DNA from: an uncultured Eubacteriales bacterium
GTDB taxonomy: Bacteria > Bacillota > Clostridia > Oscillospirales > Acutalibacteraceae
Assembly (NCBI GenBank): GCA_900321665.1
Contig: ONWY01000001.1
Location: 1 to 27,484 of the forward strand
Length of the DNA: 27,484 nucleotides
Direction of reading: 5' to 3'
The notes beneath the pieces were generated by a model, which worked only from the letters and a program-made list of their open reading frames with translations, did not search any database and was not told the DNA's origin. Each line of letters opens with the position of its first letter. Positions within the stretch are counted from its first letter, which is position 1. This document shows, piece by piece, positions 1,933 through 8,126 of the stretch. Both the position numbers and the translations under genes were made by a program.

Positions 1933-2021
1933 TTCCTATTATTTGTTTATTTTTATAAATGGAGTATGCATGAAAAAAAGTGATTTTTACTATGATTTGC
2001 CGGAGCGGCTGATTGCCCAGC

Positions 2022-2149
2022 ATCCCTTAGAGCGCAGAGACAGCTCGCGCTTGATAATGCTTAATAAAAAAACCGGTGCTACAGATCCCCTTAGAGCGCA
2101 GAGACAGCTCGCGCTTGATGGTGCTTGATAAAAAAACCGGTGCTACAGA
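2022..2149 (+). repeat. tandem duplication inside queA, period 64 nt (63 nt plus one extra C)
   Basis: 2024-2085 and 2088-2149 are 62-nt copies differing at 3 positions (A2056/A2057/A2063 vs G2120/G2121/G2127). Confidence 0.97.
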
Positions 2150-3030
2150 ACACCGCGTATTTTCCGATTTGACGGAAATCTTAATGCCCGGCGACAGCTT
2201 AATATTGAATGACACGCGTGTTTTACCCGCGCGCATCTATGGCGAGAAGATATCTACCGGTGCAGTGGTTGAATTTTTGCTTTTAAAGCAGCTTTCCGCA
2301 AGTCAATGGGAATGTATTGTCAAACCCGGCAAAAAGGCGCGAGAAGGTGCTGCATTTGATTTTAGCGGCATCATGCAGGGGACAATCACTCAGGTGCTCG
2401 AAACCGGCAACCGAATCATTGATTTTTCGTTTGAAGGCAATTTCTTCGAGCTTCTTGAAAAAATCGGCTATATGCCCATTCCGCCTTACATTAAAGAAAA
2501 GCTGGAGGATAACGAGCGCTATCAAACCGTTTATTCCAAGCATTTAGGCTCTGCAGCTGCGCCGACTGCCGGCTTGCATTTTACAAAGCAAATGCTGCAG
2601 GCATTGGAGCAAAAGGGCATTAACATCGGCTATGTGACTTTGCATGTCGGGCTTGGAACCTTCCGCCCTGTCAAGGCAGATAACATTGAAGAGCATGTCA
2701 TGCACTCCGAGCACTACCGCGTGCCGGAGGAAACCGCCGCGCTGATTAACGCTACTAAAGCCAAAGGCGGCAGGATTATTGCCGTTGGCACCACCAGCTG
2801 CCGCACACTTGAGACAGCGGCTGATGAAAGCGGAAAGTTGCAAGCGAGCGAAGGTGAGAGTAAGATTTTTATTTACCCCGGTTACCGCTTTAAGTGTATT
2901 GATGCGCTTATTACCAATTTTCACTTGCCGGAGAGCACGCTGATTATGCTTGTCAGTGCGCTGGCCGGCAGAGAAAATGTGTTGCGTGCATATGAAACAG
3001 CAGTGCGCGAGGAATACAGATTCTTTTCTT

Positions 3031-3049
3031 TCGGCGATGCGATGTTTAT
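3031..3049 (+). repeat. queA 3'-end core, copy A (inside the current gene)
   Basis: TCGGCGATGCGATGTTTAT; reads GDAMFIV* with stop at 3054-3056. Confidence 0.9.
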
Positions 3050-3076
3050 AGTTTAAAGGATGTATAAAAATTCACA

Positions 3077-3120
3077 TCATATAAACCGTAAGCATCGGCG
3101 ATGCAATGTTTATTCTATAA
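3077..3120 (+). repeat. queA 3'-end core, copy B, with upstream TCATATAAAC motif (att-like junction)
   Basis: TCATATAAAC (3077-3086), 8 nt, TCGGCGATGCAATGTTTAT (3095-3113); reads GDAMFIL* with TAA at 3118-3120. Confidence 0.85.
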
Positions 3121-3143
3121 TTTGTATATTAATATGATAGAAT

Positions 3144-3176
3144 ATTGTTGACAATTACATATTATTTGCATATAAT
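3144..3176 (+). promoter_or_regulatory. consensus sigma-A promoter of the TA operon, with a palindromic candidate operator over the -35 box
   Basis: TTGACA (3148-3153), 17 nt, TATAAT (3171-3176); ATTGT-TG-ACAAT palindrome at 3144-3155. Confidence 0.85.
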
Positions 3177-3199
3177 ATTATTGAAGGGTGGTGTCAATA

Positions 3200-3466
3200 A
3201 TGGCTCAAACTAATGTTAATATTCGTATGGATGAACAAACTAAAAAAGAGTTTTATGCTTTTTGTAATGAGATTGGTATATCTGTAAGTTCAGCTTTTAA
3301 TATTTTTGCTAAAACTGTTGTTCGAGAGCATAGAATTCCTTTTGAGATAACTACTGATGTTCCAAATTCAGACACAATAGCTGCTATCGAAAAAGCTGAT
3401 AAGGGTGTAGATGTTTTCGGACCTTTTAATACAGTTGATGAATTGATGGAGTCATTAAATGCTTAG
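3200..3466 (+). CDS. RelB/DinJ-family ribbon-helix-helix antitoxin
   Basis: MAQTNVNIRMDEQTKKEF...GISVSSAFNIFAKTVVREHRIPFEI. ATG 3200 is preferred to GTG 3188 because of the promoter position and the upstream GGGTGG; overlaps the toxin start. Confidence 0.92.
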   Translation: MAQTNVNIRMDEQTKKEFYAFCNEIGISVSSAFNIFAKTVVREHRIPFEITTDVPNSDTIAAIEKADKGVDVFGPFNTVDELMESLNA

Positions 3467-3737
3467 AATAGAATATACAGGTCAGTTTAAGAAAGATTAC
3501 AAACTCGCCATAAAAAGAAACTATGATATTAATGAGTTAGTTAATGTTATTAATATGTTGGCTAATGAAGAAAAGCTGCCGGAAAAATTCAGAGACCACG
3601 CATTAGTAAATTATTCTAAGAATGCTAATGTTCGTGAATGTCACATCAGACCTGATTGGTTATTGATATATAGAATCTATCAGGATAGACTCGTTTTAGA
3701 ATTATTGCGAACCGGAACGCATAGTGATTTGTTTTGA
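3459..3737 (+). CDS. yafQ: YafQ-family (RelE superfamily) mRNA interferase toxin
   Basis: FKKDYK, RDHAL, RECHIRPDWLLIY, RTGTHSDLF: the His/Asp/Trp/His/Phe residues conserved in YafQ are present. Confidence 0.93.
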   Translation: MLRIEYTGQFKKDYKLAIKRNYDINELVNVINMLANEEKLPEKFRDHALVNYSKNANVRECHIRPDWLLIYRIYQDRLVLELLRTGTHSDLF

Positions 3738-3742
3738 AAAAC

Positions 3743-3775
3743 AGGTGCAGGATTATCTTGCACCTATACTTTTTA
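3743..3775 (+). terminator. intrinsic terminator after yafQ
   Basis: AGGTGCAGGA-tta-TCTTGCACCT stem (one G-U pair) followed by ATACTTTTT. Confidence 0.75.
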
Positions 3776-3815
3776 TTTGTTATGATTATTCATAATAAAG
3801 GTACGATTATAAGAG

Positions 3816-3856
3816 TCATATAAACTATACACATCGATGCGATGTTTATCAGGTAG
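3816..3856 (+). repeat. queA 3'-end core, copy C, probably the displaced original queA terminus
   Basis: TCATATAAAC (3816-3825), 8 nt, TCGATGCGATGTTTAT. It reads DAMFIR* and its TAG (3854-3856) overlaps the tgt RBS AGGAG (3855-3859). Confidence 0.85.
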
Positions 3857-3865
3857 GAGAATACA

Positions 3866-4993
3866 ATGAAAATTATCAAACAAGAGGGAAGCGCGCGGCG
3901 CGGTGAATTTAAAACGGTTCACGGCACGGTGCAAACACCTGCTTTCCAAAATGTGGCGACAGCAGCTGCCATCAAAGGCGGGCTTTCGGCATTTGATTTA
4001 AAAGAAAATGCTTGCCAGGTAATGCTGTGTAATACTTACCACCTTCATTTAAGACCGGGTGATACCATTGTAAAACAGGCAGGCGGATTGCACAAATTTA
4101 CCGGGTGGAACGGTCCGATTTTAACCGACAGCGGCGGATTTCAAGTTTTTTCGCTTGCAAAATTAAATAATATAAAAGAGGAAGGTGTGACCTTTGCTTC
4201 GCATATTGACGGCAGACGCATTTTTATGGGGCCCGAGCAAAGCATGCAAATTCAGTCGAACTTAGGTTCCACGATAGCGATGGCTTTTGATGAGTGTGTC
4301 AAAAATCCTGCGCCGTATCGCTATGCAAAGGAATCAAGCGAGCGCACCATCCGTTGGCTGCAGCGCTGCAAGGCGGAAATGCAGCGGCTCAATGCGTTAC
4401 CGGATACCGTGAACCCGCACCAGCTGCTGTTCGGCATTAACCAAGGGTGCTGCTTCGAGGATATTCGTATTGATAATATGAAGCGCATTGCCGATATGGA
4501 GCTCGATGGCTATGCTATCGGCGGCTTGGCAGTAGGCGAGCCGAAGGAGGAAATGTACCGCATTATCGGCGAGGTAGAGCCGCATATGCCGGCAGATAAA
4601 ATTCGCTACTTGATGGGTGTCGGTACACCGGGGAATATTTTAACCGGGGTAAAGCTCGGGGTAGATTTATTTGATTGTGTGATGCCCTCGCGCAATGCAA
4701 GGCACGGGCATGTGTTTACTTGGGATGGTATCATAAACCTCAATAACGCGCGCTATGCCGATGACTTTGAGCCGATTGACGAGCGCTGCGATTGTGAGGC
4801 TTGCAGGCATCATTCGCGCGCCTATATTCGGCACCTGCTCAAAGCGGGCGAGATGCTCGGTATGCGCTTAGCGGTCATTCATAACCTGCATTTTTATAAC
4901 AAGCTGATGCAAAAAATCAGAGATGCCATTGAGCAGGGGAATTATGAGCAATTTTATCGCGAAAATGTAAACAAATTGGATACGCGCATATAA
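3866..4993 (+). CDS. tgt: tRNA-guanine transglycosylase (bacterial type)
   Basis: NTYHL, TDSGGFQVFSL, FDEC, GGLAVGE, RYLMGVG, FDCVMPSRNARHG, Zn site CDCEAC. Confidence 0.98.
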   Translation: MKIIKQEGSARRGEFKTVHGTVQTPAFQNVATAAAIKGGLSAFDLKENACQVMLCNTYHLHLRPGDTIVKQAGGLHKFTGWNGPILTDSGGFQVFSLAKLNNIKEEGVTFASHIDGRRIFMGPEQSMQIQSNLGSTIAMAFDECVKNPAPYRYAKESSERTIRWLQRCKAEMQRLNALPDTVNPHQLLFGINQGCCFEDIRIDNMKRIADMELDGYAIGGLAVGEPKEEMYRIIGEVEPHMPADKIRYLMGVGTPGNILTGVKLGVDLFDCVMPSRNARHGHVFTWDGIINLNNARYADDFEPIDERCDCEACRHHSRAYIRHLLKAGEMLGMRLAVIHNLHFYNKLMQKIRDAIEQGNYEQFYRENVNKLDTRI

Positions 4994-5935: not shown

Positions 5936-6533
5936 TATTTTCAGCACAAAGGTTTTTATTAAGGATAATACATTAAGTATCATTTTTATTACTCTTTTTA
6001 CCATCGGCAGCTTAGTGGGCACACTGGCGCTCAATTTCGGGAAGGATACCTCCGCGTCTTTGATTTATCTGTTAACGACCTATTTTAAAGAAAACGCGAG
6101 CCTTTCCGTAATTGCTCTTTTCAGTAGAAATTTGATTAGTGCGCTTGTGTATTTAGGGGTGATGTATATTGGAGGACTGTGCGCAATCGGATTGCCTGTA
6201 GTAGGAATAATCCCTTTATTAAAGGGAATTGCGCTTGGTATGATTATATCTTATCAATACGTATATAATGGTATTAAAGGCTTTTTGTATGCATTGGTGA
6301 TTATTCTATTGCCGCAAGCGCTTTTACTTGCAATTTTGAGCATCGCTTACGGGGAAGGTATCTATATGAGCTTAACGGTTTCCAACGGTATCTTTAACGG
6401 CAAGCCGAGAGAAACAAAATACCGACTGAGCTTTATGACCTTTTCCAAAAGGTACTTAATTTTCGCAGTCGGTATTGTGATAGTGTCTATTATTGAGGCT
6501 GTGCTCGATTCCGTGTTTTCAAAGGTGCTTTAG
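5913..6533 (+). CDS. spoIIM: stage II sporulation protein M-like membrane protein
   Basis: 206 aa polytopic protein with the SpoIIM-like pattern (F.IGSLVG, LFSRNL, GLCAIGLP, KGIALG, LLPQALL, SIIEA); AGGAG RBS. Confidence 0.8.
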   Translation: MKGYIKNSIFSTKVFIKDNTLSIIFITLFTIGSLVGTLALNFGKDTSASLIYLLTTYFKENASLSVIALFSRNLISALVYLGVMYIGGLCAIGLPVVGIIPLLKGIALGMIISYQYVYNGIKGFLYALVIILLPQALLLAILSIAYGEGIYMSLTVSNGIFNGKPRETKYRLSFMTFSKRYLIFAVGIVIVSIIEAVLDSVFSKVL

Positions 6534-7507
6534 CCTTCGTTTGCTTTGGAAAGCGGGTTAGCATTCATAGCGTTTCTGATTTGTCCGGAATCGGTATGGG
6601 TGTAGATTTCGGTGGTATTCAGGTTTTCATGTCCTAATATTTCTTTGAGCACCAAAACATCCGCATCACCGCTTTGGTACATCAGCGTTGCTGCCGTATG
6701 GCGCAGCTTGTGCACCGAAAAGCCTTGGTCGCCAAGACCTGCTTTATCGAGATACTTTTGCACCATTTTTTGCACCGATTCGCGGCTCATGCGCTTTTTT
6801 TGAGCAGAGATAAAGAGGGCTTTTTTATCAATTACGCCATCCACCGGGCGCACGCGCATATAATCTCTAATCGCTTTTAAGCAGGCATTATTGAGGTAAA
6901 CCACGCGCTCTTTATTGCCTTTACCGGTTACATCGATGGTGCAATCCTCGCGAATGTCACCGTAATTGAGCGAGCACAGCTCTGCTAAGCGCAAGCCGCA
7001 GTTTAAAAAAAGCGTAATAATGCAATAATCTCTCTCTTTATTTTTGCCTTCAACAGCATTTAAAAGGCGCGTTGCCTGCTCAAGGGTTAAGTATTTCGGG
7101 CGCGCCGCTTTTTTAAATTTCGGCATCTCTAAATCAATCATCGGGTCTTGCGGGATGCGCTTTACCTTGCGATACATATAATCAAAGTAGGATTTCAGTG
7201 TCGATACCTTGCGCGCTCTTGTGCGGTCGGTATTGCCGCGCTCATCCTTGCAAAATACCAAGTAGTTATAGGCATCCATCAGGGTGATGGATGCGATAAA
7301 GGCATCATCAATATCGCGAATATCAATTTCATCAAATGCACAATCGGCAGGGCAGAGGGCTCTGCTTTTTTTTAGAAAGCGGAAAAATGTGCGCAAATCC
7401 GAAGCATACTCTAAGGTGGTTAAGTCGGATTTTCCTTTGATAACGCGCAAATGGGTGACATACTCCTGCACACTCAGCGGCAAATATTGTAATTCTTCTT
7501 TTCTCAT
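6530..7507 (-). CDS. xerC: XerC-like tyrosine recombinase (conserved chromosomal clostridial type)
   Basis: Catalytic set is complete: GLR, TGKGNKER, HKLRH, LGH, TEIYTH. 325 aa, no phage-integrase arm-binding extension, no adjacent mobile genes. Its stop overlaps the spoIIM stop by 4 nt. Confidence 0.88.
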   Translation of the reverse strand: MRKEELQYLPLSVQEYVTHLRVIKGKSDLTTLEYASDLRTFFRFLKKSRALCPADCAFDEIDIRDIDDAFIASITLMDAYNYLVFCKDERGNTDRTRARKVSTLKSYFDYMYRKVKRIPQDPMIDLEMPKFKKAARPKYLTLEQATRLLNAVEGKNKERDYCIITLFLNCGLRLAELCSLNYGDIREDCTIDVTGKGNKERVVYLNNACLKAIRDYMRVRPVDGVIDKKALFISAQKKRMSRESVQKMVQKYLDKAGLGDQGFSVHKLRHTAATLMYQSGDADVLVLKEILGHENLNTTEIYTHTDSGQIRNAMNANPLSKANEG

Positions 7508-8090: not shown

Positions 8091-8126
8091 CTAAATTACA
8101 CAAAATATACATTTTGTGTAATTTAG
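8091..8126. repeat. perfect 36-bp palindrome, candidate dif-like recombination site
   Basis: CTAAATTACACAAAAT-ATAC-ATTTTGTGTAATTTAG. On the minus strand it parses as ...ACAAAA-TGTATA-TTTTGT... The repeat is certain; the function is inferred. Confidence 0.9.

Follow-up and report, generated by a model that had tools for sequence, protein, structure and literature searches.

The region between queA and tgt of an uncultured Eubacteriales bacterium (family Acutalibacteraceae) was analyzed on contig ONWY01000001.1 of assembly GCA_900321665.1; the whole 27,484-nucleotide stretch is hereafter referred to as the window. It is contig C111 of a 1.72-Mb metagenome-assembled genome (MAG) that comprises 294 contigs and is 73% complete. 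The gene order is asd (minus strand), queA, an interval of 0.8 kb, tgt, yajC, two small open reading frames (ORFs), one of them spoIIM-like, and a Xer-like recombinase gene (minus strand). The terminus of queA is present in three copies, A (3031-3049), B (3095-3113), and C (3835-3849), between which lie two units named here E1 and E2. The queA-tgt interval is, in our view, probably an array that arose by accretion through large serine recombinases (LSRs) whose target is the 3'-terminal codons of queA. In the feature list that follows, B and B' designate the half-sites of queA, and P and P' those of the elements.

1970..3056, plus strand: queA, S-adenosylmethionine:tRNA ribosyltransferase-isomerase (Pfam Queuosine_synth, 7e-135); its last seven codons come from E1.
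3012..3062, plus strand: putative attL-type junction, in which the central GA (3036-3037) is flanked by the half-site of queA (B) and by P' (TGCGATGTTTATAGTTTAAAGGA), which is the left end of E1; the same junction is found in the goat-rumen genome L046.
3038..3101, plus strand: E1, 64 bp, consisting of a P' half-site, 14 bp, a P half-site (TCATATAAAC-CGTAAG-CATCGGC), and GA; variably present within the species, with a copy in a second genus.
3075..3126, plus strand: interior junction of attP-like form, P of E1, GA (3100-3101), and P' of E2, which gives the second queA terminus (GDAMFIL*).
3102..3837, plus strand: E2, 736 bp, with P' at its left end and P at its right end; found between queA and tgt in about 40 contigs of the species, with a relative in genome L273.
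3148..3176, plus strand: predicted cassette promoter, TTGACA-17-TATAAT, 12 of 12 consensus positions.
3200..3466, plus strand: RelB/DinJ-family antitoxin, 88 aa (Pfam RelB, 7e-19; NCBIfam RelB_DinJ, 3e-22).
3459..3737, plus strand: YafQ/RelE-family toxin, 92 aa, with an 8-bp overlap with the antitoxin gene (Pfam YafQ_toxin, 5e-32; NCBIfam RelE_StbE, 5e-24).
3743..3775, plus strand: predicted intrinsic terminator belonging to the cassette, with a stem of 10 pairs and a T-run after it.
3816..3865, plus strand: putative attR-type junction, consisting of P of E2 (TCATATAAAC-TATACA-CATC, from which 3 bp, GGC/CGG, are missing), GA (3836-3837), the native queA tail (B') with its stop, and the ribosome-binding site (RBS) of tgt.
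3866..4993, plus strand: tgt, queuine tRNA-ribosyltransferase, the native downstream gene (Pfam TGT, 8e-158).

The original prediction, made from the letters of the window, held that queA has three in-frame termini, each with its own stop, and this was borne out. The sequence GATGCRATGTTTAT occurs exactly three times in the window, at 3036, 3100, and 3836 (chance expectation about 0.07; 0 of 100 shuffles reached three occurrences), and no further occurrence was found in the rest of the 1.72-Mb MAG. Copy A reads to ...MFIV* (stop at 3054-3056), copy B to ...MFIL* (GDAMFIL*; stop at 3118-3120), and copy C to ...MFIR* (stop at 3854-3856), the last of these overlapping AGGTAGGAG, the RBS of tgt (ATG at 3866). 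Copy C had been proposed to be the original queA-tgt junction, and the congeners agree. Five of them (G002, G003, G004, G005, and G007) have an empty site that reads queA..GDAM(F/L)I-x-stop (as in queA..GDAMFIQ*-AGGAG-tgt), AGGAG, and tgt, and because this gap is as short as 16-20 bp, copy C together with the RBS can be taken as the native junction. The motif said to precede copies B and C is also present at both, as TCATATAAAC-N6-CATC (3077-3097 and 3816-3836), with 0 control matches in the genome. TGTATA does follow copies A and B as claimed, but its conservation does not extend to the wider family, and its presence is probably due to chance. A dif-like reading of TCATATAAAC and TGTATA was considered and dropped, as the flanking "XerC arm" positions vary from one family member to another.

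At copy C, the majority sequence of the species is CATCGGCGATGC, and the window is 3 bp shorter there; the ancestral repeat would thus have been longer than the copies in the window indicate. The loss of these 3 bp (GGC/CGG, window 3834-3835) beside the central GA was also seen in three other assemblies (L032, L034, and L045) and in run X2, and the 3 bp are kept in three of four public runs aligned to the window. Such a loss should shift the register of the P half-site and probably fixes E2 in place.

E1 contains no ORF. It consists of P' (about 25 bp), 14 bp, and P (about 25 bp), and it appears to be a bare attachment site. Among the assemblies of the species that were read, six have E1 and nine do not; in the latter, queA joins copy B directly. 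One public contig skips exactly 64 bp (3041 to 3106), and both forms are present in sample X9. Two of the short alleles (L029 and L044) have G instead of A at a polymorphic base. A separate observation concerns the short contig L043 (1-350), in which the last ~150 nt of queA, all that it holds of this gene, are clearly divergent from those of other strains, whereas its E2 and tgt hardly differ from those of these strains. The contrast points to recombination in L043 with a breakpoint at the attL junction or close to it.

E2, in turn, is by its sequence a complete transcription unit. The profile matches above cut-offs, the overlap of the two genes, and the consensus promoter of its own identify it as a type II toxin-antitoxin cassette of the RelB/DinJ-YafQ type. 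It was found between queA and tgt in all of the approximately 40 same-species contigs from other metagenomes. Three independent scaffolds (L027, L029, and L041) end or enter an N-run exactly after ..ACGATTATA (about window 3806-3812), just upstream of the right end of E2, and L029 joins the point after ..ACGATTATA straight to GATGTTTATCAGG. These breaks could reflect strain heterogeneity, a deletion variant, or a scaffolding artifact.

E1 and E2 are, as judged from sequence comparison, two site-specific insertions. The prediction of two related tandem elements, of 64 and 736 bp and lacking a recombinase, was upheld, as was that of their mobility, since E1 is variably present within the species and both elements occur at the queA end of another genus. 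In the goat-rumen MAG L046 (Eubacterium sp. RGIG3418), E1 with its cores is identical at 77 of 77 positions and is located at that organism's own queA end; the preceding queA codons are 64% and tgt is 66% identical to the window, and the native tail reads GDAILII*. A sister species of L046 (L273, 78-82% identical to it) carries E2 at the queA end, with 90.8% identity over 683 bp compared with 66% for tgt. More distant relatives of E2 also lie directly after queA, and their toxins are 76% and 74% identical. RelB/YafQ cassettes of two different hosts (L244 and L253) are 84% identical, ends included, compared with 65% for queA. In L277, two cassettes, RelB/YafQ and PemK, come after queA, and tgt is not downstream; the target is therefore queA itself rather than the queA-tgt spacer. 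Together, these comparisons show that whole units recur horizontally between hosts.

In order to describe the attachment site, about 50 junctions from about 30 genomes were aligned on the GA of GGN-GA-YGC. The junction consensus reads ..aaTC-tTATAT-cCCGTAAa-CATCGGc for P, then GA, then TGCGATGTTTAT-aGta-TAAAAGAttt for P'. Mirror identity per junction was 11.6 of 24 at offset 0, compared with 5.2-7.6 at all other offsets, and the reverse complement of P equals P' at about 18 of 24 consensus positions. The site is accordingly a dyad of about 50 bp centered on the nonpalindromic GA of GGC-GA-TGC. The inverted arms noticed earlier around copy B are real and form part of this larger dyad. The GA sits in the Asp codon of F-G-D-A-M-F-I, and the inner 12 bp of every P' are equal to the native tail B'. 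The attP sites of LSRs are about 50 bp long, with an imperfect dyad of two half-sites of about 25 bp each and a nonpalindromic central dinucleotide; the queA-site family has a dyad of this kind. Strand exchange by LSRs has a 2-bp stagger at the central dinucleotide; here, comparison of the junctions placed the crossover only within TCGGCGATGC(R)AT.

Similar arrays were found in about 30 other gut and rumen Clostridia. A family scan of one genome per species, in which a non-queA CATCGG was required in front of a queA terminus, returned 63 loci, about 35 of which are in Clostridia and have the common right end. Many of the loci contain two to four termini in an array, and their units measure 64-153 bp or 0.7-1.1 kb. 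Every cassette scanned carries a toxin-antitoxin system as cargo, and these systems belong to at least five families (DUF4160/DUF2442, Gp49-HigB/HTH, RelB/YafQ, Fic-Doc, or HicB). Cargo-less units of 134-153 bp with long G+C-rich inverted repeats (GTAGGGCGG...CCGCCCTAC) lie between queA termini in L244, L252, L215, L204, L249, and L250; pairs of these from different species are 77-92% identical, and they resemble a second family of att-only mini units. A scan for tandem termini was swamped by chance matches and left eight real cases after filtering, two of which (L108 and L134) resemble plain tandem duplications. The large queA-tgt gaps of G035, G040, and G028 showed no second queA terminus. 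The right-end motif gave 20 matches in IMG/VR viral contigs, all random and none then followed by the queA core, and one random match in metagenome contigs of the Joint Genome Institute; among 400 genomes of the host's own family, it matched the window alone. No other copies of the element ends were found above control level in the window's genome. Of a different nature are G+C-rich repeat units downstream of queA in L048 (540-869, about 250 bp) and L051 (G028; about 800-1500, about 310 bp), which are unrelated to the att family.

The original prediction had proposed comparing queA-tgt intervals across relatives, and this revealed empty sites, alternative cargo, and recombinase-bearing parents instead of a single uniform interval. 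In the complete genome of Clostridiales bacterium CCNA10 (G421) and in an Oscillibacter genome (G422), the queA terminus and a second copy of it are 103.5 kb apart. At its right end, this 103-kb element matches the small cassettes in their high-information positions. The sole recombinase located at an end of the element is an LSR of 599 aa (Resolvase, Recombinase, and Zn_ribbon domains) encoded 250 bp from the queA stop in convergent orientation, and no gene of the tyrosine recombinase family PF00589 was found inside the element. An intact LSR that is 52% identical occupies the same position beside queA in L205, and C-terminal stumps of LSR genes were found in L206, after an interior junction, and in G035, directly after queA. 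LSR homologs numbered 3,657 at E<=1e-30; three were sampled (P0109, P0032, and P0071). All three (60-77% identical) lie 40-70 bp from a queA stop and adjoin CI/Cro-like genes, on account of which their carriers are taken to be temperate phages. An LSR gene thus adjoins queA in all five prophage or element cases, and a PF00589 gene adjoins it in none. Metagenome contig L258 (about 4280-4350, minus-strand orientation) has the right and left ends of the 103-kb element joined via one core (P-GA-P'); this joined form is either an excised circle or a tandem copy. Judged by these sequences, the family's enzyme is more likely an LSR than a tyrosine recombinase. The window itself contains no LSR gene. 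The sole LSR of its MAG (C219, DUF4368-type) was considered as a partner and rejected, being 27% identical and having no queA-like site beside it.

Under the LSR model, target and elements would share the ~50-bp site with mirrored half-sites around GA, and an incoming element would carry P-GA-P'. After integration, queA would read B-GA-P', in which P' encodes the same D-A-M-F-I and provides a new stop, and the old queA tail (B') would be displaced downstream, behind P-GA. Because the inner 12 bp of P' equal B', the junctions could serve again as partner sites and so allow stacking. E2, present in every assembly of the species, would have been the first to arrive; E1, which is still polymorphic, would have been inserted later at the queA-proximal junction, an order proposed by analogy with the one assumed for the staphylococcal cassette chromosome (SCC). 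The autonomous relatives would be temperate phages and the 103-kb element, with the LSR gene convergent on queA, and the small units would travel by hitch-hiking, through co-excision with a phage inserted beside them. Neither E1 nor E2 encodes a recombinase, and an LSR would have to act on such small units in trans. Toxin-antitoxin cargo may predominate because it resists deletion. We infer, then, exchange at GA, stacking through mimicry by P', co-excision with phages, and enrichment of toxin-antitoxin systems through their resistance to loss.

Several observations weigh against this model. No queA-clade LSR was found in the 73%-complete MAG of the window or, at more than 38% identity, in five other small-cassette genomes, all of them MAGs. 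The contigs of four public runs aligned to the window contain no joint that skips E2 and no circle junction, bearing in mind that assembled contigs drop rare forms. Like these negative findings, the 3-bp loss from the P half of E2 in the window speaks against action in trans. The inner arms of the site begin 3 bp from the center (6-bp spacing), which is also compatible with an 11-6-11 inner site of tyrosine/Xer type. The short alleles with G could have lost E1 through repeat-mediated deletion just as well as through a recombinase, and a 64-bp circle is implausible as a free intermediate. By the standard rule, LSRs recombine attP with attB only, and this rule alone does not predict stacking. 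A further step would be to regard the small P'-cargo-P units as a functional system of cassettes that parallels the integron but relies on serine recombinases: at the queA stop, LSRs of phages would take up, stack, and pass on self-contained cassettes, mostly toxin-antitoxin, as well as bare att units of 64-150 bp. Such a system would work because every P' imitates the queA tail, so that each junction regenerates the entry site. We put this forward only tentatively and consider it rather doubtful.

Other explanations of the array were weighed against construction by LSRs. The units may instead be immobile fossils, each an internal-deletion remnant of a full LSR prophage that was never mobile once small, with E1 lost by slippage between 19-bp repeats. 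The LSR gene stumps in arrays (L206 and G035), the failure to find a resident LSR, the short G-type alleles, which fit repeat-mediated deletion, and the damaged P half of E2 in the window all speak for such fossils. An identical 64-bp unit in two genera, however, would need the same deletion end-points twice, and E2, the 742-bp RelB/YafQ cassettes, and the units of about 150 bp recur whole, ends included, in hosts whose queA or tgt are 65-66% identical, which makes this explanation unlikely. That the array is an assembly artifact or a plain tandem duplication of the queA end is scarcely credible: the MAG is in 294 contigs and has a second 64-bp duplication, inside queA, that is in no other assembly, and plain duplications of the queA end do exist elsewhere (L108 and L134), but independent assemblies, produced in several studies with several assemblers, show the E1 plus E2 layout again, what lies between the copies has no relation to queA, and each of the three copies has flanks of its own.

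The original prediction had attributed both insertions to a tyrosine recombinase acting in trans, which would use a 6-8-bp overlap (GCGATG) flanked by inverted core arms and could be a phage-type integrase or the Xer-like gene product (6530-7507). The inner arms CATCG and CGATG around 6 bp resemble dif-type 11-6-11 sites, a Xer-like recombinase is encoded 2.7 kb downstream, and tandem accretion with recombinase-less elements is classic for tyrosine-integrase systems of integrative and conjugative elements (ICEs) and cis-mobilizable elements (CIMEs). Against this attribution stand the autonomous relatives with the same ends, which carry an LSR and no tyrosine recombinase beside queA, and the 50-bp dyad around GA, whose symmetry reaches about +/-24 bp and is longer than a simple tyrosine core site. 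In all five prophage or element cases, an LSR gene and not a PF00589 gene lies next to queA, and the interior of the 103-kb element likewise yielded no PF00589 gene. The Xer-like gene is in conserved synteny with the spoIIM-like gene and is also present in L046, where the site holds E1 only, and outside the 103-kb element, and it therefore looks like a housekeeping gene; the palindrome beside it (8091-8126) shares nothing with the queA site. We regard a tyrosine recombinase as improbable. The units could also be read as miniature transposons with 21-bp terminal inverted repeats (CGATGT.TATAGTTTA...) and a 6-bp target-site duplication (GCGATG), for whose movement a DDE transposase with a preference for the queA end would be responsible. 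Their ends are indeed inverted repeats (18 of 21 positions), the period equals the element plus 6 bp, and units of 64-153 bp are of the size of miniature inverted-repeat transposable elements, but the genome holds no further copy, the family members found all share a single target around the queA stop, the repeat measures 13-22 bp rather than 6 bp, and parents bearing an LSR were found and no transposase with these ends. Miniature transposons are thus very improbable, and LSRs remain the preferred builders of the array.

Arrays that work in a similar manner are known at other genes. As with SCC and pseudo-SCC elements at rlmH, where the LSRs are CcrAB and CcrC, integration would occur at the 3' end of a conserved RNA-modification gene; elements are stacked in tandem with att copies between them, and SCC too has ccr-less elements between att pairs. 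In SCC islands, the element nearest rlmH/orfX is taken as the newest (PMC13739063). In contrast to SCC, the target here is queA and not rlmH, the hosts are gut and rumen Clostridia, and the parents have a single phage-type LSR rather than a Ccr pair; the units, of 64 bp to about 1 kb, are far smaller, carry toxin-antitoxin systems where scanned, and have no resident recombinase that we could find. The queA array therefore works like SCC but is not a member of that group. The ssrA islands of Dehalococcoides (DsiB/DsiA) are arranged in tandem behind a single-copy gene, and each is bounded by a 20-bp repeat of the 3' end of the gene (McMurdie et al. 2011, PMC3146451). Each repeat is immediately preceded by a conserved motif, a reverse-strand serine recombinase gene adjoins attL, and members without a recombinase were proposed to be cis-mobilizable (PMC3146451). 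Serine recombinases, repeats of a gene 3' end, tandem stacking, and recombinase-less members are common to both systems; the Dehalococcoides islands differ in their target (a tmRNA gene), size (about 10 kb), dehalogenase cargo, phylum, and DsiB plus DsiA module. Here too, the queA array works alike without being a member.

CIMEs at att sites of the ICESt1/ICESt3 type, which PMC3146451 also mentions, lack a recombinase, keep attL and attR, and accumulate next to an autonomous element, together with which they move in cis. ICE/CIME systems differ from the queA array in having tyrosine integrases and a long identical core, whereas the evidence at queA points to an LSR and a dyad with a 2-bp center; none of the parents examined has a PF00589 gene next to queA, and the 103-kb element has none in its interior. 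With integron arrays, the queA array shares single-function cassettes that are often toxin-antitoxin systems, an imperfect palindromic site at the cassette end, and, as proposed above, a newest cassette nearest the entry point. Unlike integrons, it has no IntI, no attI beside an integrase, and no RYYYAAC/GTTRRRY boxes in the consensus; its entry point is inside a housekeeping gene, and the cassettes have their own promoter. The Xer-like gene product scored 67 bits with the integron integrase model, whose cut-off is 265 bits. We found no description of such a family in the literature, as had been surmised, and a search for queA as an attachment or integration site, attB, or target of a serine recombinase or prophage returned nothing relevant. 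What appears to be undescribed is the use of queA as a target, the reduction in size down to an att-only unit of 64 bp, and the fact that different genera share cassettes.

LSRs are major tools in genome engineering. The queA system would offer a natural attB within the conserved F-G-D-A-M-F-I codons, dozens of natural P/P' variants, and the 3,657 LSR homologs mentioned above (E<=1e-30). Whether the attP x attB rule relaxes when a half-site mimics the target is a question to which the stacked junctions and the att-only units (64-150 bp) are relevant. For the annotation of Clostridia genomes, toxin-antitoxin genes just after queA may be read as cargo or survivors of LSR elements, and repeated queA termini as att junctions rather than functional alternative C-termini.

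Two further observations concern the window. A 64-bp tandem duplication (2024-2151) in the 5' part of queA breaks the reading frame. Its two copies are 94% identical, copy 1 carrying three G-to-A changes; 10 of 10 other assemblies have a single copy, of the copy-2 type, and queA is intact, encoding 340 aa, in 20 other assemblies. The duplication, private to this MAG, is either an assembly artifact or a recent mutation, and its period equals that of E1 (64 bp), a coincidence for which we have no explanation. The Xer-like tyrosine recombinase (6530-7507, minus strand) scored about 200 bits with the XerA, XerC, and XerD models, below their cut-offs, and its gene adjoins the spoIIM-like gene. A perfect 36-bp palindrome (8091-8126), noted earlier together with this gene as a possible single-recombinase dif system and unrelated in sequence to the queA site, lies 0.6 kb from it.

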